DNA of 59,100 bases from Flavobacteriales bacterium (GTDB taxonomy: Bacteria; Bacteroidota; Bacteroidia; Flavobacteriales_F; PHOS-HE28), in the NCBI GenBank assembly GCA_041745875.1, contig JBGTIB010000234.1, positions 1 through 59,100 on the forward strand, given 5' to 3'. Both the position numbers and the translations under genes were made by a program. The number at the start of each line of letters is the position of its first letter. Positions within the stretch are counted from its first letter, which is position 1. This document shows, one piece after another, positions 5,308 to 45,359 of the stretch. A model generated the notes under the pieces. The model did not search any database. It saw only the letters and a list, made by a program, of their open reading frames with translations, and was not told the DNA's origin.

Positions 5308-6866
5308 GCCGCACGCTTCGCGCGTAGGGCGCGCTCCTGTACCGCATCGGCGAAATAGTTGGCGCCCAGCTTGCTTTCAGCCCATGCGATCGGGTCCAGA
5401 TGGTCGAAAACGACCTGTTCCATCGGGTCCGCCTCGATCGGCCGTAGTTCTTCCAGGAATTGTTGCAGGACTGTGGTCCTGGCCATGCCGGGCCCCGCCT
5501 TCAACAATGCGCGCATCATTTTCAGGAAGAGCAATTCAAAGCGATGCGTACGATGACGTGTGTGAAGGAATCGCTCCGTGTTGCGCAAGGTATAGGGGAT
5601 CTGGTCGTGCTTCCCGGACTCCCATAGTCCCAGTATATGGAGGATGCGCCCGAAGCAGACGATCTCCGTGCTTTCATCGATATGCACCTCGTTGAGCAGG
5701 CGATGGACCCATTTCAACGACTGATCGACCTGTCCGGCACCGAAGTAGATGTATGCGATCTGGTACAGGAAGCCGGCCTTGCGTACGGGTCCGATGCGGT
5801 CCTCTTGCGCTGCAAGACGGCGCTCCACCCCGGGCAGCAGATCCAAGGCCTTGGAAAAGGATCCCACCTGGCAATGCATGGACAGCTCAAGACTGGTGCT
5901 GGTGCTGAAGAGCTTGAGTTCCAAGTCCTCGGTCTCGGGCATGCCCCATGTCATGGGGATGGAACGGAATTCACGAAGCACGCTTTGTGCCTCGTCATAG
6001 CGCCCTGTGCGGATGCACACGTAGGTGAGATTGCTCAGCACACCAAGGACGGCGCTGGGCTCATCCACGAACCGGTCCATTTCCGTTGCGAGCAGATCGC
6101 GGTTCGCGTGCAGATGCTTGTAGCACACTGACAGGTCGCCGAGGGCGAAGGATGCAGCGCTATGTATGTGGTGATACAGGTATCGTGCCTTCGCGGTACG
6201 CAGTTTCGTCCGGTCGCTCAGCAAGGGATGATCCAACAGTTGACGTACCTCTTCGCAACCTGCCGTATCACGGGCCTGTCCGCGCGTATAGAGCGCAAGG
6301 AGCACTCCGCTTTTCAGGTGCCAGAGCTTGTCGAGCTCCTCCAGTTCATCTCGTAGGGTACGACCATTTTCCGCTAGATCTTCAAGCATTCCAGGTTCCG
6401 CGGAAGCATAATTGTTGCCTTCGAGTAGCCGCCGCTCCCATTCCAGAACGGCACACAGTATGGCCTGGCGGTCATGCTGTCGAGCCGATCGTGCCACACC
6501 GGCAAGCACCTTGGCGGCATCATCATACAGTGCCCTTTGGTGAAGGATCTCCACGTGATGCAGTGACCGGCCCAGTCGTGCATCGATGGAGGTTTCGGCG
6601 TGAAAGGCGTCGAGGCTGCGGAGGACGCTTTCGTACAACCGTCGTTTGGTGATCGCGAAGCGGTTGGTGAACGCCTCTTCCGCGAACCGTTGCACCAGTG
6701 CCTCCTCGTCATAGTGTGCCATTGCTGCAATGGCGTCGAAGAGCTTATGTTGAATGCAGTGTCTCCCGGCCATACCCCGTCCAGTGTGGACCTTGTAGTA
6801 GCGCTTTTCGGCGCGCGACATGCTGCGTACCAATCGGTGCACATGGTCGTGGGCCTTGTGGGACAT
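5304..6866 (-). CDS. Conserved hypothetical alpha-helical (TPR-like) protein
   Basis: 520-aa ORF; N-terminus LVRSMSRAEKRYYK resembles a Bacteroidota family of unknown function; helical repeat character. Confidence 0.7.
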   Translation of the reverse strand: MSHKAHDHVHRLVRSMSRAEKRYYKVHTGRGMAGRHCIQHKLFDAIAAMAHYDEEALVQRFAEEAFTNRFAITKRRLYESVLRSLDAFHAETSIDARLGRSLHHVEILHQRALYDDAAKVLAGVARSARQHDRQAILCAVLEWERRLLEGNNYASAEPGMLEDLAENGRTLRDELEELDKLWHLKSGVLLALYTRGQARDTAGCEEVRQLLDHPLLSDRTKLRTAKARYLYHHIHSAASFALGDLSVCYKHLHANRDLLATEMDRFVDEPSAVLGVLSNLTYVCIRTGRYDEAQSVLREFRSIPMTWGMPETEDLELKLFSTSTSLELSMHCQVGSFSKALDLLPGVERRLAAQEDRIGPVRKAGFLYQIAYIYFGAGQVDQSLKWVHRLLNEVHIDESTEIVCFGRILHILGLWESGKHDQIPYTLRNTERFLHTRHRTHRFELLFLKMMRALLKAGPGMARTTVLQQFLEELRPIEADPMEQVVFDHLDPIAWAESKLGANYFADAVQERALRAKRAA

Positions 6867-6971
6867 GCTGCGAAATTGTCCTGGGGGATAGGTCACGGTC
6901 CCAAGACACCGAGAAAGTAGTGCTGGCGGCCAGGTCGGTACCCCTGCTCTGCGAGGAACGGTGACGACCTG

Positions 6972-7006
6972 AAAAGGAACGGCCCGGGGATCACCCGGGC
7001 CGTTCC
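6972..7006 (-). terminator. Rho-independent terminator of the adhesin gene
   Basis: 13-bp stem GGAACGGCCCGGG/CCCGGGCCGTTCC followed by TTTT on the minus strand. Confidence 0.75.
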
Positions 7007-7028
7007 AGCGTTGATCGGCGGTATCGGA

Positions 7029-10000
7029 TCAGCGCAACACTTGGATATGTCCCATAAGCTCCTGTTCCATGCCAAGGCGACCATTCACATCTTCCAGGAA
7101 GCGATACCGGATCCGCCACACATACACGTCGTTCTTCACCACCTCGCCCCGGTACGTGCCGTCCCAACCGATGTCCGGGCTGTTGCTTTGGAACATCACG
7201 CCGCCCCAACGATCGAATACTAGCAGTTCCATGCTCGCGATGTTCTTCCCCACCGGAATGAAGATGTCGTTGATGCCGTCACCATTGGGCGTGAAGGTGT
7301 TGGGCAAGTAAATGGCGGAAGGGCAATACTCATTGACCTCGACCGAATCTGTCAAACTACACGCGAAGTCATTGGTGATCTTCACAGTGTACCATCCATA
7401 CCGATCAACGGAGATGCCCTGCGTGGTCTCGCCGGTGCTCCACAGGAATTCGGCTCCAGCATTGCCCGCATCGAGGTACACTTCACGGGGCTCCTCATCC
7501 AGGCAGACGTAATGGATCCTGGTGTGTATCCGATCGGGTACGGGATCGAAGTGGACATATATCGAATCGCCACGGATACAATAGCCGTTGTTCACCAGCA
7601 CGTGATAAAGGCCTGAGCTGGTCACGGCCAATGTGGATGACGAGGAACCTGTGTTCCAAGTGTAGGTGTTGCCTGGACCACCAGCATGAAGCTCAAGCGT
7701 TTCGCCAGCACAGTGTACGGCATCCTGGCCAAGGTCCACCACAGGCGGCGCGACCATTTCCACAGTGGACGAGAATGTTCCGGTACATCCATGGATGTTC
7801 GTTACAACCACACCATAAGTGCCGCTTGCGGTGGGCTGAATGGCCTGTGAAGTGGCTCCCGTGCTCCACAGGAATTCGCCTCCCGGGTTCCCGGCATCCA
7901 ACGTGATCGACTGATCCTCACATGTTGTGATGTTCGATAAGGCATTGGTGGGGGCGGGTAGCACGATCAGGTCGATGACATCGCTTGCACTGCACCAACC
8001 GTTGCTCACGGTCACACCATAGGTTCCGGAAGATCCGGTGTTCAATGTTTGCCCGTTGCTTCCGTTGCTCCATGTGAAAGAGGCACCCGCATTTCCAGCA
8101 TCCAGCACCACGGAGTTCCCTGCGCAGATACTGGTATCATTACCCAGGAAAACGTTCAATGTGGGCATCAGGGTCACCGTCGCGGAGAAAGTGGCACTGC
8201 ATGCCTGGGGGGTGGTGACGGTAACGCTGTAGATGCCACTGGTCGCGGGTTGGATACTCGGTGTGACGTCTCCGGTGCTCCAGACATAACTACTTCCGGG
8301 GTTGCCAGCGTTGAGCACGGGGGGGCTATCCATGCATGCGGTCTCATCCTGAAGGTTGTTCACGGGCAGGGGGTTGAACTGCACGGTCGCTTGATCCGAG
8401 GCCGCGCATCCGTTCGCGTTCGTTACGGTCACGCCATAAGGACCTGAACTGGTCACGCTGATCTGTTGAACACTGGCTCCCGTGGTCCATGCATAGGTGG
8501 ATCCCGGGTTACCTGCGTTCAGCACATGTGCTGTCGCACCACACAAGGACACATCCGGCCCGATGTCCACCGTGGGTAGTTCGAACAACGTGACATTGAA
8601 GGTGGTGATCGCCGTACATCCTTGCGCATCGGTGATCGTCACCGTATGTGGACCACTAGTACCTGGTATGATGCTTTGGCTCGTCGCACCCGTATTCCAG
8701 GCATAGGATGTACCCGCTGCCGGCGCTGCAAGTGTCGGCGGAGCATCGGCACACCCGCTGGCCTGAAGTTGGGCAGGAACACCATCGAACGCGCGTGTGA
8801 TGATCACCGCGTCGCTCACGCTGCAACCGTTCTGGTCGGTAACGGTCGCGGTGTATGTGGCCGAAGCGTCCACCAGGATCGAAGGCGTCTGGATGTTCGC
8901 TGCATTCAGGTTGGACGCGGGGCTCCAGCTGTAGGCAGCATTGGGAACATTGTGCTGGACCCCCAATTGATGGCCCAAGGCTGTGCACAGCGTAACGTCC
9001 GGCCCGACGGTGGCCGTGTAACCTGTGTTCACCACGATGGTAACGCTGGAGGATAATGAGCACCCGGAAGGGATGTCCGTCACGGTACAGAGATAGGTTG
9101 TTGTGCTGGTGGGAGTGGCCACTGGGGCGGGGCTCGAGGGATCGTTCAACGAACCAGCATTGTTCCAACTATAGCTCAGGTTCGCTCCGCCGCTGGCCAG
9201 TGCATTGAGCATCGTGCTCTGTCCCTGGCAAAGCGTGTCATTGGTCACGATGATGCTCAAGTCCAGTAGTTGGCCTACTGTAATGGTGACCTGATCGGTC
9301 GCACCGCATCCGGTGGCACTGAGCGCGGTCACGGTGTAAGTGGTGGTCTCCTGCGGGGTCACTGTAGGGTCAGGTACCGTGATGTTACTGATGGTGCCAT
9401 TGTTCGGCGACCATGACCAGTCGAGGTCGAGGGTCGTATTGGCAACGGCAAGGAGTTGTATTCCCGCAACTGCACAGAGTATGGTGTCATTGTTCACCGA
9501 CAGGTCGAAGGCGGGCTCCACCAGTACGAGCACGGAATCGCTGTACTGGCATCCGGCGGCCGGGTCGGTACCAAGGATCTTGAACCAGCCGGTCCCCGTC
9601 GGGGATGCCTGGGTGGTGGGGTCGGTGGGGTTTGTTACCGAGGCAGGCAACCACTGGTAGTCCAACCAATCATTGTCCACGGCGATGACCATGAAGTCGT
9701 CCACCGCCCAGTTATCCTGACCTGCCCCGGAATGTGTCAATTGCCGTAGGCGGAGCATGGTGTTGGTCGTCAGTGCTGCGGAAGGAAGCGCGAGTTGGAT
9801 GGGAGTGAACCCCGGGTAAGCGTTCTCCTGGAATGTGGCAATGTTGTTCCAAGCGAATCCATTGTTGTTGGAGTACTCCAGCACGACATCTTCACCGGGG
9901 TTCGCGTCGGAGCAAGGAGCCACCCCATCCGCGATCTTCAAATGGAACCGTACCTCTCCACCGTTCTGTGTATTGAACCCGATGGTCTGTGCATAGCGCT

Positions 10001-42495: not shown

Positions 42496-42500
42496 GGGCC

Positions 42501-42950
42501 TCAGGAGAGTTCCAATTTACGTACGATCAGGCCACCTTTCTCCAGCAGTTCCAAACCAGATGGGTCCTTATATGCATCCACGTATACGAGGCGTTTGATA
42601 CCCGCCTGTAAGATCAGCTTGCTGCATTCCTTGCAGGGCGAGTGCGTGAGGTATAACGTGGCACTGCGCGCATTGTTGGTACTACGGGCAACTTTCAGGA
42701 TGGCGTTCGCCTCGGCGTGTAACACATACCAGTACGTGGTCCCGCTCGGGTCCTCGCAATCATTGGGAAAACCGGTGGGTGTGCCATTGTACCCATCGCT
42801 GATGATCATGCCATCCTTCACGATGATCGCACCAACCTGCTTGCGCGTGCAGTGGCTCAACTTGGCCCACTCCAAAGCCATGCGCATGTAGGCCCGGTCG
42901 TAGCGGTCCTGCTTGGCAGGGTCAGGGTAAACGAGGTCGTTCTGCTGCAT
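42501..42950 (-). CDS. dCMP deaminase family protein
   Basis: GYNGTP, HAEANAI, SPCKEC; start moved to ATG 42950. Confidence 0.93.
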   Translation of the reverse strand: MQQNDLVYPDPAKQDRYDRAYMRMALEWAKLSHCTRKQVGAIIVKDGMIISDGYNGTPTGFPNDCEDPSGTTYWYVLHAEANAILKVARSTNNARSATLYLTHSPCKECSKLILQAGIKRLVYVDAYKDPSGLELLEKGGLIVRKLELS

Positions 42951-42962
42951 CGGGAGGGCATT

Positions 42963-43066
42963 TGCCCATGTGGTCATGTGCTCATGTGCCCATGAATGCA
43001 CGCCTCTGGTTCCGGAGGACCAATGTGCACATGGTCGCATGGTCGCATGTTCACATGACCACATGC
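42963..43066. repeat. Inverted pair of octamer tandem arrays
   Basis: TGCCCATG TGGTCATG TGCTCATG TGCCCATG ... CATGGTCG CATGGTCG CATGTTCA CATGACCA. Confidence 0.75.
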
Positions 43067-43076
43067 CTTCGCTTCG

Positions 43077-43158
43077 TACCCAGGGCGGGACTCGAACCCG
43101 CACGAATTGCTTCACTGGTGTTTGAGACCAGCGCGTCTACCGATTCCGCCACCTGGGT
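43077..43158 (-). tRNA. tRNA-Leu (anticodon CAA)
   Basis: ACCCAGG/CCTGGGT acceptor stem, CTGGT-CTCAAAC-ACCAG anticodon arm, long variable arm, GTTCGAGTC T loop; CCA not encoded. Confidence 0.96.
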
Positions 43159-43164
43159 AGGTGC

Positions 43165-43419
43165 TCACCTTCTTTTGCGGTTGCGAATTTCTTTCAATAA
43201 CTCCTTTCCCGCACCAGACTTCAAGAACTTTTCTCGTCTCCGAGCTTCCTTTCTATCTGGCAACACTTCAACGACCAAAACTTCGAAGGGCCTATAAGCA
43301 CGCGTTGTAGGTTCTTTGCCTCGCTGATGCTCATTGATCCTTCGTTCCACATTCAAGCTCAGTCCCACGTAGATGTACTCCTTCTCCAAGCTGGCTAAGG
43401 CATATACCGAGCAGTTCAT
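43165..43419 (-). CDS. Small GIY-YIG nuclease
   Basis: VYAL...YIYVG, RRINEH, T..YRPF, EARRREKFLKSG; lower GC than neighbours. Confidence 0.9.
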   Translation of the reverse strand: MNCSVYALASLEKEYIYVGLSLNVERRINEHQRGKEPTTRAYRPFEVLVVEVLPDRKEARRREKFLKSGAGKELLKEIRNRKRR

Positions 43420-43426
43420 TCCATTG

Positions 43427-43494
43427 CTGGTGTTTGTGACCAGCGCGCCTGCCTGCCGGCAGGCAGGTCTACCGATTCCGCCACCTGGGTAGGT
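43427..43494 (-). pseudogene. Duplicated 5' half of tRNA-Leu(CAA) interrupted by a 20-bp palindrome
   Basis: ACCTACCCAGGTGGCGGAATCGGTAGA[CCTGCCTGCCGGCAGGCAGG]CGCGCTGGTCACAAACACCAG; matches the intact tRNA plus 4 nt of leader except one base. Confidence 0.92.
43448..43467. repeat. Perfect 20-bp palindrome (REP-like)
   Basis: CCTGCCTGCC/GGCAGGCAGG. Confidence 0.9.
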
Positions 43495-43504
43495 ATTGGG
43501 GCGG

Positions 43505-43512
43505 CGAAGTTA
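43505..43512 (-). promoter_or_regulatory. Probable promoter of the half-tRNA / GIY-YIG / tRNA-Leu unit
   Basis: TAACTTCG, a variant of TAnnTTTG, just upstream of the half-tRNA. Confidence 0.55.
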
Positions 43513-43565
43513 AGCAGCAAGGGCTGCTCAGTGTTATCGAACGAAGCGAGCGGGCCTGTATCCCA

Positions 43566-45359
43566 TCATTCCTTGATGAAGCGGGCACTGATACTTGAAC
43601 CTGCGATGCGCACCGAATACAGCCCGGCGGGCAATCCGGAAACGTCGATGGTCGATGTGGTGCCACTGGTCCTGGTCCGCATCACACAGGCGCCTTTCGT
43701 GTCGAATACGTCCACCCCGGTGCCCGGCAACACATTCGGAGCGGCCAGGTTCAGAAGGGTCGATGTAGGGTTGGGAAAGAGCGCGAGATGATCGGCCGCA
43801 ACTGGCCGTTCATGGAGACCGGTGGGCAACCCATCACAGGCCATTGGCCAACCCTCTTCCACGCTGTTCCACATGCCGGGTATGTCCATCGCGAATGCGC
43901 GAATGCTATCCACACGCTGCTGCAGTGCGGCTACGCTGGCCTCTGGACCTCCGTCCTCTGCACGGGCGTACACATAGGCCAGGAGCAGGTTGATGTGCTC
44001 ACCGGGCTCCAAGGTGCCCGGTCCCATACGGGCCAAAACTCTCCTGTCACCCGGCACATTGCCTGCGCCCACTTCGCTCCATGGCGCTTGTGGTACACCG
44101 CCGGTACCCAGCCCGGCCTGGTCGCTTTCACCTGGGAACACATAGTCGGTGTACACCAATGGAGGAACGCTCGAATATCCAGTTCCGCCGTAGCGCAAGG
44201 GAACGTTGTCCTTCCATATACCGCGCAGGTAACTGTAGAAGTGGGTGTGCGTGGTCGGGTCGGTCATGGAGACCGGTCCCTGTTCCAGCCAATACATGGA
44301 GCCGCTCAATCCATGGCGCTCATTATCGATGATCCCGTCCGCGAACCCGCTGCCGTATTGGTACAGGTATTCGGGTAGTGCGGGGTTATCCATGCCATCG
44401 AGCTCAAGACGCGGCCCCTTCAACACGACCATACCGAATGCGGGTGGGTTGGTACCGAAGCCGGGAGTGCCCAGGCAACTCTCGTCCACTTCATCGCCAT
44501 TCACCGCATAGATCATTCCTCGGGGGGCATCGGTACCTACGAGGTCATCCAGTCCGCACCCCAGATCCAAGTCGGCGAATTGTCCGATCCCAAAGTGCAA
44601 AAGGGTCTGGGTTCCTTGGTTGATGATCTTGTATTGCACGAAGACGGTGTTCGCCAGGGCCGGATCGCTGGTGTATGCGAAAGGCATCATGCGTACCTCC
44701 ACACCGATAGGCTGTCCGCCGCTTCCAGTGATCATGTCATTGAAAATGGCGAATAGCGCCTGATCTCCAAGTATGCAAGGGTGATCGCCGGCGAAGGGGT
44801 CATAGTTGCCATCATTGTCATAGTCGAAGAAGGGTGCGAGGTAGGGGTCTTGAAAGGCTGCCACATCACCCATGGCGGGCCAGGTGATGAAAACATTTGG
44901 AACGGTGTAGCCACCGGGGAATTGCTGGGCCACATCGCAACCAGGGTCGGCCAGGCAATCGAAGTAGGCGCGGTGCAGGATCACATCCGCCTGTTCGACC
45001 TTCCACACCTGATCATATTGTGCGGAGACCTGCGGGGTGATGGTGGCAGATCCGTCGTTGGTCAAGGGGCCGGGCCAGAACTGCTGGGGATCCGTTCCAT
45101 TGAGATGTGCTGCGAGCTTCAATTGGTTGTCCGGGCTGAGGCCCCCCAACCAGAGTCCACTGCTATAAAGCAATGGCGCACTGTTGGCCGAAGGCACAAC
45201 GAAGGCACTGGTGCCGTTGACCAGATCGGGCCCGATGAGACCCGTGGAATGGACCCGGGCGCGGATCTCGTTGATGTCGAGTTCGGCGAAGGCCTGGGCT
45301 CCCGCTTGTTGCGCGGTGAGCAACAACCCGAAAAGGACGGAGGTGTATTTGTGGGCCAT
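43566..45359 (-). CDS. T9SS type A sorting domain protein, function unknown
   Basis: Signal peptide AGA-Q; CTD LFPNPT...IDVSGLPAGLY...RFIKE. Confidence 0.9.
   Translation of the reverse strand: MAHKYTSVLFGLLLTAQQAGAQAFAELDINEIRARVHSTGLIGPDLVNGTSAFVVPSANSAPLLYSSGLWLGGLSPDNQLKLAAHLNGTDPQQFWPGPLTNDGSATITPQVSAQYDQVWKVEQADVILHRAYFDCLADPGCDVAQQFPGGYTVPNVFITWPAMGDVAAFQDPYLAPFFDYDNDGNYDPFAGDHPCILGDQALFAIFNDMITGSGGQPIGVEVRMMPFAYTSDPALANTVFVQYKIINQGTQTLLHFGIGQFADLDLGCGLDDLVGTDAPRGMIYAVNGDEVDESCLGTPGFGTNPPAFGMVVLKGPRLELDGMDNPALPEYLYQYGSGFADGIIDNERHGLSGSMYWLEQGPVSMTDPTTHTHFYSYLRGIWKDNVPLRYGGTGYSSVPPLVYTDYVFPGESDQAGLGTGGVPQAPWSEVGAGNVPGDRRVLARMGPGTLEPGEHINLLLAYVYARAEDGGPEASVAALQQRVDSIRAFAMDIPGMWNSVEEGWPMACDGLPTGLHERPVAADHLALFPNPTSTLLNLAAPNVLPGTGVDVFDTKGACVMRTRTSGTTSTIDVSGLPAGLYSVRIAGSSISARFIKE

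Follow-up and report, generated by a model that had tools for sequence, protein, structure and literature searches.

What is a small predicted nuclease gene doing between one incomplete and one full copy of the same tRNA gene? The locus that raises this question lies at positions 43076..43512 of the window, the 59,100-nt stretch of a Flavobacteriales genome analysed here.

Anatomy of the tRNA-Leu locus

Read along the minus strand, a promoter-like motif is followed by a partial tRNA-Leu copy that contains a perfect 20-nt palindrome (HP), by a gene for an 84-aa GIY-YIG protein and by an intact tRNA-Leu(CAA):

43505..43512, minus strand: promoter-like motif TAACTTCG, at a genus-conserved position, form TATCTT[C/T]GC
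43504..43491, minus strand: leader after the promoter-like motif
43467..43494, minus strand: left piece, with 4 leader nt and tRNA-Leu nt 1-24, of the partial copy (repeat comparison)
43448..43467, no strand assigned: HP, perfect 20-nt palindrome CCTGCCTGCCGGCAGGCAGG, interrupting the partial tRNA copy
43427..43446, minus strand: right piece of that copy, a 20-nt anticodon arm with one substitution
43426..43420, minus strand: 7-nt spacer from the partial copy to the ORF
43165..43419, minus strand: single-domain GIY-YIG nuclease gene, 84 aa (Pfam PF01541)
43159..43164, minus strand: 6-nt spacer from the ORF to the intact tRNA, its final 4 nt repeating the native leader
43076..43158, minus strand: intact tRNA-Leu(CAA) (ARAGORN; Rfam tRNA, 59.3 bits, E 6.3e-12)

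ARAGORN, Rfam, Pfam and a repeat comparison together bore out the order first read from the sequence, namely half-tRNA, 7 nt, 84-aa GIY-YIG gene, 6 nt and complete tRNA-Leu. The left piece (43494..43467) matches 43162..43135 with 100% identity over 28 nt, and the first C of HP can be assigned equally to tRNA nt 24. The substitution in the right piece is a T to A at 43437, immediately 5' of the anticodon; in the orthologues the stem of this piece is retained and its loop has diverged. The original prediction described a 48-nt duplication that included 4 leader nt and one anticodon-loop substitution. Both details stand, but the copy is not contiguous, since HP splits it into 28 + 20 nt, with spacings between the repeats of 332 and 312 nt. 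A palindrome had also been mentioned, without a position, and is placed here inside the partial copy.

The intact gene is the only tRNA-Leu(CAA) that ARAGORN finds in the genome, and the same tRNA is 100% identical across many genomes of the genus, those lacking the GIY-YIG gene included. No further extra copy of the left tRNA fragment occurs in the 4.66-Mb genome. Because of this, and because the same architecture is present in independent assemblies, the arrangement is not due to chance.

A scan of 42900-43700 for sigma-70 promoters and intrinsic terminators gave 0 matches, an outcome that is expected for Bacteroidota and carries little information. The promoter that had been proposed is thus without a sigma-70 site, but TATCTT[C/T]GC is found equidistant upstream of the partial copy at occupied genus loci and of the tRNA at empty ones. 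The motif at 43505..43512 resembles the Bacteroidota -7 element. Since the insert separates the native promoter region from the intact tRNA, that tRNA is necessarily, and the nuclease mRNA probably, read from the native promoter; the conserved position of the motif fits the earlier suggestion that the tRNA promoter is used. The 95-nt leader RNA, comprising the partial copy, HP and the start codon, is predicted to form two hairpins of ordinary energy (z -0.92).

A single-domain nuclease kept by selection

The protein belongs to the GIY-YIG family, with Pfam PF01541 covering residues 3-68 (E 7.5e-16; 58.6 bits, cut-off 22.6). Among 19 relatives Y17, G19, R27, H31 and E63 are invariant and Y6 is nearly so, and the same comparison revealed a conserved, clade-specific C-terminal motif (EKYLKSGxGKxFL). 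I-TevI and the Seg proteins carry a DNA-binding module that reads a long target; no such module is evident here, where only a basic tail of ~16 residues follows the Pfam domain. The closest solved structure is 1zg2_A (UPF0213; E 2.3e-4). A PHROGs search returned 0 matches, PADLOC yielded weak PDC-S14 matches alone (E 0.0035), and NCBIfam offered a group I intron endonuclease alone, below threshold (16.5 bits against a cut-off of 56).

Comparison of orthologous loci gave a dN/dS of 0.08-0.11 at dS 0.67-1.43. The ORF is therefore under purifying selection, and this substitution pattern demonstrates that the protein is kept by selection. Strong constraint would also suit a housekeeping or repair enzyme of the host, a nuclease transcribed together with tRNA and tmRNA genes, in which case the duplications would be by-products of local recombination; such an enzyme could, for instance, act on RNA or resolve structures where RNA genes are heavily transcribed. 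The great breadth of the GIY-YIG family (2490 representative clusters at E <= 1e-3) can be read in the same way. So can the Slx1 cluster, for which PMC1564403 records a TrmH-like tRNA methyltransferase fusion and proposes a connection with RNA metabolism. Against a housekeeping role, this genome holds one copy of the unit, at 1 of its 43 tRNA genes.

Occupied and empty alleles in the genus

Three more species of the genus (G030, G036 and G006) have the same arrangement. Among the four orthologues the GIY-YIG proteins share 82-87% amino-acid identity and the flanking DNA is 79-84% identical, a similar divergence that fits vertical descent within the genus. The same architecture thus appears in at least four separately assembled genomes, and we reject the assembly artefact that the original prediction had allowed for.

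Presence of the gene is patchy, which argues against a housekeeping function. It is absent at 15 of the 19 genus loci at which the tRNA could be placed; of 37 genomes, 6 have a GIY-YIG match at E <= 1e-25 and 21 have none at E <= 0.001. An empty allele, for which a search had been proposed, was found in exact form: occupied G036 equals empty G090 plus 333 nt, bounded by a 29-nt repeat (-5..+24), and the flanks of the two show 98.6% identity across 2094 nt and 94.9% across 1191 nt. The difference agrees with the unit of about 330 bp in a tRNA gene that had been postulated. Presence or absence at one exact site in close relatives is expected of a free-standing homing endonuclease gene, and a close relative with an exact empty allele is again difficult to reconcile with a housekeeping gene. 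The empty site can be one that was never invaded or the product of a precise deletion between the repeats.

The 333-nt unit comprises HP, a diverged anticodon arm, the GIY-YIG gene and another copy of leader and tRNA nt 1-24. The insert duplicates a portion of the tRNA gene and thereby preserves one intact tRNA. The GIY-YIG gene is its single real ORF; no other ORF was found within the 333 nt, and no recombinase, whose absence the first reading of the locus had stated.

Integrase elements have tRNA and tmRNA genes as their classic targets and leave part of the gene behind as direct repeats. The present unit shares with such islands and prophages the class of target, the flanking direct repeats made of part of the tRNA and the retention of one intact gene. 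Partial tRNA genes left by integrase-element events are documented in bioRxiv 10.1101/2022.07.05.498093, and the unit could accordingly be viewed as the remnant of an integrase-type island or prophage once resident in the tRNA gene, or else as a tRNA intron. However, the entire difference from the empty allele amounts to 333 nt with one 84-aa ORF and no recombinase, the duplicated part is the 5' end, and the same compact unit recurs in many phyla. An intron is contradicted by the uninterrupted tRNA and by the lack of any Rfam intron family at E <= 1 within 42500-44000. Both origins therefore appear extremely improbable. Unlike an integrase island, the unit measures 0.33 kb rather than kilobases, occurs in 5'- and 3'-side forms, and has a displaced copy interrupted by a palindrome.

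Two specific candidates were rejected. The 333-nt insert has no tyrosine or serine recombinase gene, which speaks against an integrase-type tRNA-targeting island; a group I intron in tRNA-Leu was dismissed on the continuous tRNA, the missing Rfam intron match and the below cut-off NCBIfam endonuclease score.

Relatives at tRNA and tmRNA genes across phyla

Relatives' loci were searched from the single 84-aa protein as query. In a first set, 18 of 30 loci had a tRNA or tmRNA gene within 1.5 kb, with partial duplications at 11 of the 18. In a second set drawn from many phyla, a same-strand tRNA or tmRNA gene adjoined 55 of 87 loci and a partial tRNA duplication was present at 26 of 87, both counts including three hand corrections. 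The linkage was closest among the 28 nearest in-phylum relatives, where a tRNA gene was the site for 26 (24 Leu, 2 Arg) and a duplication accompanied 25 of the 26. The tie between GIY-YIG genes and tRNA duplications, on which the original prediction had made itself depend, is strong in the 87 loci and in the 28 closest relatives. Depending on the form, the duplications affect the 5' side or the 3' side of the tRNA or tmRNA gene. One clade of ~14 Verrucomicrobiota loci showed no tRNA linkage whatever, and a pattern-based search of viral contigs found no relative of the protein.

On a FastTree protein tree tRNA type is clustered: it changes 25 times, whereas 1000 shuffles averaged 41.9 changes and never gave fewer than 38. 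Two proteins with 85% identity, both adjoining tRNA-Ser, come from records labelled Gammaproteobacteria and Patescibacteria, a cross-phylum pair if the labels are right. Several relatives form tandem arrays (7.9 x 364 nt; 3.1 x 323 nt, 100% identical; 3.2 x 345 nt), so that the amplification foreseen for this locus is realised elsewhere with units of 323-364 nt. Decay is visible as in-frame stops in 11 among the matches listed. Copy number reaches 12 per genome (G260), and a 0.7-Mb genome of the candidate phyla radiation (CPR) contains 10 PF01541 matches.

These data bear on the housekeeping explanation in both directions. At 29 of the 55 linked loci the gene is placed on the same strand as the tRNA or tmRNA with no detectable duplication, as a co-transcribed host gene would be. 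In contrast, tandem arrays, decayed copies, as many as 12 copies per genome and lineages bound to one tRNA type across phyla are not features of a housekeeping gene, and we consider this explanation improbable.

The palindrome and its nuclease neighbours

No other non-coding part of the unit is as conserved as HP. All 20 of its 20 positions are identical in four orthologous lineages at dS about 1 (0.67-1.43), for which the neutral chance is about 1e-18. It contains no stop codon in any frame. This genome has 17 HP sites, the reversed control 0, and HP is likewise scattered across genomes carrying this nuclease clade. Partial tRNA copies in Bacteroidota and in CPR bacteria contain the identical palindrome.

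REP repeats have RAYT transposases as their partners, and Rickettsia palindromic elements have been reported in frame inside genes. HP resembles both in being short, scattered through genomes and mostly intergenic, and it resembles the Rickettsia elements in being read in frame inside an essential gene at least once. It differs from them in its 20-21 nt and its identity across phyla, and from REP/RAYT in that its statistical partner is a GIY-YIG gene. HP could be a tiny mobile palindrome with the GIY-YIG clade as its nuclease partner, in the manner of REP and RAYT; tRNA genes would then be a safe harbour of the nuclease gene. The tRNA copies would be disabled by HP insertion, so that the intact copy beside the nuclease gene becomes indispensable, an addiction-like replacement.

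Several observations favour such a partnership, in addition to the conservation of HP in the four lineages. The same 20-mer occurs in partial copies beside the GIY-YIG gene in Bacteroidota, and again in Giovannonibacteria and Saccharibacteria records (L099, L105) and a Chitinophaga record (L130). Genomes carrying the clade contain from 25 to 189 HP pattern matches, with 38 in a 0.7-Mb genome, against 0 in the reversed control everywhere. Across 401 genomes of the phylum the GIY-YIG clade is present in 22 of 36 HP-positive and 78 of 365 HP-negative genomes (odds ratio 5.8, p 1.3e-6, related genomes being non-independent). In G166, G186 and G525, genomes with one strict HP each, this HP lies 15-55 nt from the GIY-YIG ORF. 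Within tRNA genes HP recurs at nt 15/16, at nt 24/25 and directly before the T-loop TTCGA, and the partial copies of L209 and L198 are full-length tRNA copies to which HP is the only addition.

Other observations speak against the partnership. No GIY-YIG match at E <= 1e-8 was found in 14 of the 36 HP-positive genomes, including ones with 8 and 5 strict HPs; conversely, 78 genomes have the clade and no strict HP. At 39 of 40 viral-contig HP sites there is no GIY-YIG gene within 600 nt, and other GIY-YIG subclades are accompanied by other hairpins (TCCCG...CGGGA, CCGCC...GGCGG) or by none. Y1 transposase genes, a competing partner, are present in 5 of 5 HP-rich genomes tested, and have been excluded for one gene in one genome: around the best Y1_Tnp gene of this genome (C309) lie five copies of another palindrome but no HP. 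No HP was found near the other two Y1_Tnp genes of this genome. GIY-YIG enzymes hydrolyse DNA, and we know of none that joins strands, so a partnership with HP lacks a means of HP insertion. Overall we judge it rather unlikely that HP is a mobile palindrome served by the nuclease.

A joint reading of similarly low probability treats the 84-aa nuclease and the 20-nt palindrome as one two-part mobile system that crossed phyla. In such a system the nuclease gene would lodge in a tRNA gene and be hard to lose, because the only intact tRNA copy adjoins it, while HP would disable the other copy. The nuclease would spread HP or recognise it elsewhere, in-frame sites in essential genes included, and HP would leave no target duplication. 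In a bolder variant, the transcript of partial tRNA and HP might act as handle and guide, bringing the domain-only nuclease to the matching tRNA gene.

A proposed minimal homing-like element in a tRNA gene

On balance we find it somewhat probable that the 333-nt unit is a minimal selfish, homing-like element, specialised for tRNA-Leu and belonging to a large family of mini GIY-YIG elements linked to tRNA and tmRNA genes. Decayed copies, tandem arrays, patchy presence and cross-phylum near-identical pairs (if the labels are right) would fit a homing life cycle of invasion, decay and loss with transfer between lineages; the divergence inside the genus, which is like that of the flanks, speaks against it.

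According to this selfish-element model, the predicted nuclease would break or nick an unoccupied tRNA gene, or a structure formed by the gene. Homing-like double-strand-break repair would then copy the element from an occupied allele, with tRNA sequence providing the homology arms, and the same tRNA repeats could mediate precise loss and tandem amplification. HP within the partial copy would disable that copy and may restrict exchange between it and the intact gene, as suggested by the perfect identity that always ends at HP. HP may also serve as the recognition site of the nuclease. The intact tRNA equals the tRNA of empty genomes, so that under a simple tRNA-gene-cutting model a carrier would cut itself, unless the target reaches into the leader.

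Seg proteins are about 200 aa or longer and include a DNA-binding part. The Seg family comprises free-standing GIY-YIG homing endonuclease genes of T-even phages, with SegB within the T4 tRNA gene cluster (PMC2330249). These genes are preferentially inherited, because break repair copies each of them together with its flanks. The present locus likewise has a stand-alone, non-intron GIY-YIG nuclease gene beside a tRNA gene. Seg genes, however, reside in phage genomes and show neither a partial target-gene duplication nor a conserved palindrome, whereas here a bacterial chromosome encodes an 84-aa protein and a partial duplication restores the tRNA gene.

A second parallel is provided by fungal mitochondria, where mobile GC-rich double-hairpin elements occur in the same genomes as mobile endonuclease ORFs. 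In work on Allomyces atp6, such ORFs reportedly arrive with a new end for the gene, and the end that they displace persists as a pseudo-copy. There, as here, an endonuclease ORF arrives with a partial duplicate of the invaded gene, and gene function is thereby kept. The mitochondrial ORFs invade 3' ends of organellar protein genes; the present family targets the 5' or 3' side of tRNA and tmRNA genes in bacteria, and one palindrome is common to phyla. The UPF0213, YhbQ and Slx1-cluster proteins share fold family and size class with the protein (PMC1564403; PDB 1zg2) and differ from it in that the clade has its own C-terminal motif.

In the literature searched we found no description of tRNA-linked mini GIY-YIG inserts or of the tRNA linkage of this clade. 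If the selfish-element model is correct, the unit would be among the smallest autonomous bacterial mobile units known, at about 330 bp with one 84-aa protein and no recombinase, and would target essential RNA genes without destroying them; it is common in hosts from Bacteroidota to CPR bacteria. It would account for many unexplained small 'GIY-YIG nuclease family' genes beside tRNA and tmRNA genes, for many annotated 'tRNA' calls that are incomplete or over-long and for a palindrome that breaks short-read assemblies. The model raises the questions of how a bare catalytic domain finds its way to one tRNA gene, and how a 20-nt palindrome is identical across phyla and spreads. A domain-only nuclease with simple, portable target choice would be of practical interest too.

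Contigs from sequencing runs

Sequencing-run contigs break at the palindrome. Each of two runs from one study yielded one contig in which 43168 is joined to 43440 and the ORF is skipped; the shorter side of the join spans 30-34 nt. As a weak hint, these contigs may represent a relative without the ORF, living in the same samples, or a different organism.

Anatomy of the tRNA-Leu(CAA) element

ARAGORN places a single tRNA in the 59.1-kb window, a tRNA-Leu(CAA), and besides this tRNA an Rfam scan of 42500-44000 returned just three chance-level miRNA matches. The gene is preceded by a GIY-YIG open reading frame (ORF) and a partial copy of the tRNA, and the flanking genes encode a Por_Secre_tail protein (upstream) and a dCMP deaminase (downstream).

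Features of the element and the adjoining tRNA gene
43494..43467, minus strand: left piece of the partial copy, 4 leader nt and tRNA nt 1-24 (28 nt, 100% identity)
43467..43448, between both copied pieces: palindrome HP, CCTGCCTGCCGGCAGGCAGG, perfect over 20 nt
43446..43427, minus strand: anticodon-arm copy with one substitution (A for T at 43437), ending 7 nt before the ATG of the ORF
43419..43165, minus strand: 84-aa GIY-YIG ORF (Pfam GIY-YIG E 7.5e-16, residues 3-68)
43158..43076, minus strand: intact tRNA-Leu(CAA) (ARAGORN; Rfam 59.3 bits, E 6.3e-12)

The ORF ends 6 nt before the intact tRNA. The repeat spacings of the two copied pieces are 312 and 332 nt, and therefore 20 extra nt, namely HP, part them. 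The original prediction of a half-tRNA, a nuclease gene and an intact tRNA-Leu was accurate in all measured details, except that it gave the 48 copied nt as one block, which HP in fact splits. The genome has no second tRNA-Leu(CAA) gene, and a genome-wide search for further extra copies of the fragment found none.

Between the tRNA-Leu and deaminase genes lies a CATGTG-rich inverted repeat (42959-43069; 28-nt arms, 86% complementary, 43 nt apart), to which the chance-level Rfam miRNA matches fall; many genus genomes keep it, and one (L074) has GATCAGATGATC repeats in its place. Two sequencing runs of one study (X1 and X2) each gave one assembled contig joining 43168 to 43440, without the GIY ORF and with the partial copy and palindrome. 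These junction contigs, with 30-34 nt on the shorter side, may represent an ORF-less relative in the same samples.

Occupied and empty loci in the genus

With the window protein as query, the GIY-YIG protein is single-copy in its own genome, and a match at E <= 0.001 is present in 32 of 61 genomes of relatives. In three species of the genus (genomes G030, G036 and G006) the locus, with a protein 82-87% identical, shows the same order of parts: a conserved upstream motif with the leader, nt 1-24 of the tRNA, identical HP, diverged anticodon-arm hairpin, ORF, short spacer and intact tRNA. The tRNA-plus-deaminase DNA is present in 120 of 121 genus genomes. A full tRNA could be placed by pattern in 19 of 30 fetched genus loci (the other 11 being L059, L068, L070, L073, L075, L078, L079, L080 and L082-L084); the GIY gene is found in four of these 19 (own genome, G036, G030 and G029) and absent from 15. 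G090 provides the exact empty counterpart of G036: the occupied locus aligns as the empty one plus 333 nt, a 29-nt segment (-5..+24) occurs twice in it, and the flanks are 98.6% identical over 2094 nt downstream and 94.9% over 1191 nt upstream. Genomes either have or lack, at precisely one position, an insert whose anatomy is fixed; by duplicating part of the tRNA it leaves that gene whole. The genus data fit vertical descent with losses and repeated invasion equally well.

The conserved motif TATCTT[C/T]GC, presumably a promoter by its likeness to the Bacteroidota -7 element, precedes the tRNA in empty loci and the partial copy in occupied ones; a sigma-70 scan found no promoter at the locus. 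The intact tRNA of occupied loci has therefore lost its own upstream region; only 6 nt separate it from the stop codon, and its transcription must pass through the ORF. The position of the insert makes the native upstream region common to tRNA and ORF.

Conservation of the GIY-YIG gene

By codon comparison of the four orthologues the gene is functional, with pairwise dN/dS of 0.08-0.11 at dS 0.67-1.43. In an alignment of 19 relatives Y17, G19, R27, H31, T39, E63 and K67 are invariant, Y6 is nearly so, and a C-terminal motif EKYLKSGxGKxFL is kept. Among solved structures, the UPF0213 protein 1zg2_A is the closest in sequence (E 2.3e-4). At E <= 1e-3 the large family comprises 2490 representative clusters, of which 193 remain at <= 1e-10; nearly all are of 75-135 aa.

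Association with tRNA and tmRNA genes

In 18 of 30 loci from relatives a tRNA or tmRNA lies <= 1.5 kb away, and in 11 of these 18 partial copies of that tRNA flank the GIY gene (none were detected in L012, L014, L017, L019, L021, L022 and L026). A scan of one genome per species added 66 loci from Bacteroidota, Ignavibacteriales, Verrucomicrobiota, Patescibacteria, Chloroflexota, Gammaproteobacteria, Omnitrophota and others. Pooling gave 87 distinct loci, with L009, L011, L023 and L152-L154 left out (cut, broken, part of a long frame or weak) and L089-L091, which duplicate the records L003, L002 and L004, counted once. Linkage, defined as a tRNA or tmRNA on the same strand and no more than 450 nt upstream or 200 nt downstream, holds for 52/87 loci and duplication for 23/87; adding by eye L010, L092 and L133, where the stop of the ORF falls within the tRNA, brings these to 55/87 and 26/87. 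Rough arithmetic from ~45 tRNA genes per 4-Mb genome puts chance linkage below 1%.

Matches at E <= 1e-8 occur in 100 of 401 sampled genomes of the phylum. Among the best 28 loci of this sample, 26 have a tRNA on the same strand beside them (Leu of four anticodons at 24 loci, Arg-TCT at 2), with partial duplications in 25 of the 26. Two forms were seen. Ten of the 26 have the window arrangement (upstream partial 5' copy, ORF, intact tRNA), and in the other 16 the intact tRNA leads, with a copy behind the ORF that is partial or sometimes full-length. The window's genus has examples of both at tRNA-Leu(CAA) (L001-L005 vs L006).

Clades in a FastTree phylogeny of the proteins match Leu, Arg-CCT, Val-GAC, Ala-GGC, Gly-GCC, Ser, Met and tmRNA, and several span phyla. 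The tRNA label changes 25 times over 76 labelled tips, vs 41.9 on average and never fewer than 38 in 1000 shuffles, a difference to which relatedness alone contributes. Two tRNA-Ser-linked proteins are 85% identical in records labelled Gammaproteobacteria and Patescibacteria, which are metagenome-bin labels and may be wrong.

In L019, L021 and L022 (genus genomes G004, G017 and G021) and in L017, members of a separate GIY-YIG clade follow the tmRNA gene at a distance of 150-190 nt, with no duplication detected at these four loci. The window's own genome has its tmRNA at 7645-8040 of contig C58, which carries no GIY match.

Turnover

Tandem arrays are common in the family. In G260 a 364-nt unit occurs 7.9 times (92% match). 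G498 has a 323-nt unit 3.1 times, 100% identical, upstream of tRNA-Ser, and in G320 a 345-nt unit occurs 3.2 times behind tRNA-Leu(TAA). In-frame stops interrupt 11 of the matches listed for the 401-genome sample, and one 0.7-Mb genome of the candidate phyla radiation (CPR) has 10 PF01541 matches. Several genus genomes carry ORF-less units of ~75 nt behind tRNA-Leu (L060, L065, L076 and L077; also the occupied L002, L004 and L005). These combine a degenerate duplicate of the variable arm and T-stem with a variant of HP and an exact repeat of the final 20 nt of the tRNA. The insert encodes a conserved nuclease, in lineages loyal to one tRNA type, and it both amplifies and decays.

A housekeeping role of the GIY-YIG protein would fit the selection on the gene and the many tRNA- or tmRNA-linked loci without duplications; we regard it as distinctly improbable, given its misfit with patchiness, arrays, decay and multiplicity.

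The window's own genome also has arrays of partial tRNA-Pro copies with no GIY gene (C194:34540-35060 and C233:8250-8780). The tRNA-Pro(GGG) has two copies before it and at least two after it, with the hairpin TCCCGACAGGGTCGGGA in place of the anticodon arm and the promoter or terminator region included; tRNA-Pro(CGG) is followed by two ~170-nt units, each ending in the last 19 nt of the tRNA.

A proposed homing-like mode of spread

The feature is real, and the interpretation first offered for it, a selfish tRNA-targeting unit, holds as far as sequence comparison can carry. The element would spread when a break or nick induces repair in which the tRNA sequence supplies the homology arms, and the same tRNA repeats would let it be lost precisely or grow in tandem, a scheme that we consider somewhat probable. 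One weak point of this homing-like reading is a bare catalytic domain without an evident way to read its target; another is that the genus data fit descent with losses just as well. The intact tRNA beside the element is identical to the tRNA of empty genomes, so that a simple target within the tRNA would be cut in carriers too; such cutting might account for the tandem arrays. Neither an integrase remnant nor an intron fits, as each fails on its defining features.

The element is best classed as a variant of the free-standing homing-endonuclease kind. Unusually, it rebuilds an essential RNA gene by partial duplication, and its palindrome is conserved across phyla and also dispersed, features that may define a separate kind of element. 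Mobile endonuclease genes of fungal mitochondria, Rickettsia palindromic elements, REP/RAYT systems and I-TevI offer further comparisons. No published account of small tRNA/tmRNA-linked GIY-YIG genes or of HP was found in the full-text literature, whose coverage leaves most subscription journals outside, so that a description elsewhere is possible. Related published work deals with the GIY-YIG superfamily, its Slx1 cluster and a TrmH fusion (PMC1564403), with tRNA gene fragments arising from integrase elements (bioRxiv 10.1101/2022.07.05.498093) and with T4 SegB (PMC2330249).

The palindrome within the elements

HP is the most conserved non-coding part of the element. It is 20/20 identical in the four orthologues, for which chance is ~1e-18 under neutrality at these dS values, and from its letters it has no stop codon in any frame. 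The identical 20-mer interrupts a partial tRNA-Asn copy beside a GIY gene in a Giovannonibacteria record (L099) and likewise interrupts a Saccharibacteria locus (L105), tRNA-Arg elements of two Bacteroidota families (L010, L130, L204 and L208) and most tRNA-Leu elements. By pattern it lies <= 450 nt from the ORF in 18 of the 28 closest loci, with variants seen by eye in at least four more (L194, L205, L206 and L210). Upstream copies carry HP recurrently at nt 9/10, 15/16, 21/22 or 24/25, and downstream copies either at nt 15/16 or immediately ahead of the T-loop TTCGA, with no target duplication at HP sites in tRNA copies. Identity of the partial copy to the intact tRNA is always perfect from the outer end to HP, and the inner part is diverged. 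Other GIY clades have different small GC hairpins, several with GAA or TTCG loops, or no hairpin.

The palindrome beyond the elements

The window's own genome contains 17 sites of HP (CCTGCCTGCC..GGCAGGCAGG, 20-21 nt) vs none for a reversed control: on contigs C1, C16, C25, C36 (three), C61, C118, C151, C222, C238 (two), C273 (two) and C294 (two), and at 43448-43467 in the window. Just one of the 17 has a tRNA near it, and several lie next to other hairpins or at their tips. In other carriers the pattern matches 15-189 times per genome, one perfect site counting up to three. At least 10 matches occur in 12 of 61 relatives, ten of which have a GIY match at E <= 5e-11 (not G024 and G040); among the other 49, three have one at E <= 1.2e-10 (G011, G041 and G059).

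Within the phylum sample the strict pattern occurs in 36 of 401 genomes (control 0/401). The window protein's clade is present in 22/36 HP-positive vs 78/365 HP-negative genomes (odds ratio 5.8, p 1.3e-6; related genomes are not independent), and G166, G186 and G525 have one strict HP each, 15-55 nt from the GIY ORF. The main rival to the homing-like reading makes nuclease and HP partners: HP would have disabled the tRNA copies now seen as partial ones, leaving the cell unable to lose the one that adjoins the nuclease gene. We hold this to be unlikely. Fourteen of the 36 HP-positive genomes have no member of the clade at E <= 1e-8, and of 40 places with the exact 20-mer in viral contigs just one has a GIY gene within 600 nt, which counts against strict dependence of HP on GIY.

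Y1 transposase genes were found in all five HP-rich genomes tested. In the window's own genome the best such gene is flanked by a different palindrome, in five copies, and not by HP: on C309 an IS200-like, RAYT-like gene and then five copies of CGACCCC-NNN-GGGGTCG (6155-6496 and 6635-7351) resemble an ordinary REP/RAYT pair.

The 0.7-Mb CPR genome G145 has several HP copies 21 nt long, and there a 368-aa alanyl-tRNA-synthetase-like ORF (L178:935-2041) reads HP at 1501-1520 in frame (..KKPHLPTGRQVATF.., just before the DTGMGLER motif). On a viral contig (L244:556-647) a full-length tRNA-Met-like gene, called by ARAGORN as a 92-nt tRNA, carries HP at the variable-loop position. The 95-nt 'tRNA-His(atg)' that ARAGORN calls at C118:30454-30548 of the window's own genome is made of GGTGGCGGGCGGAT-type motif repeats, with fragments on four other contigs, and is probably a repeat rather than a tRNA.
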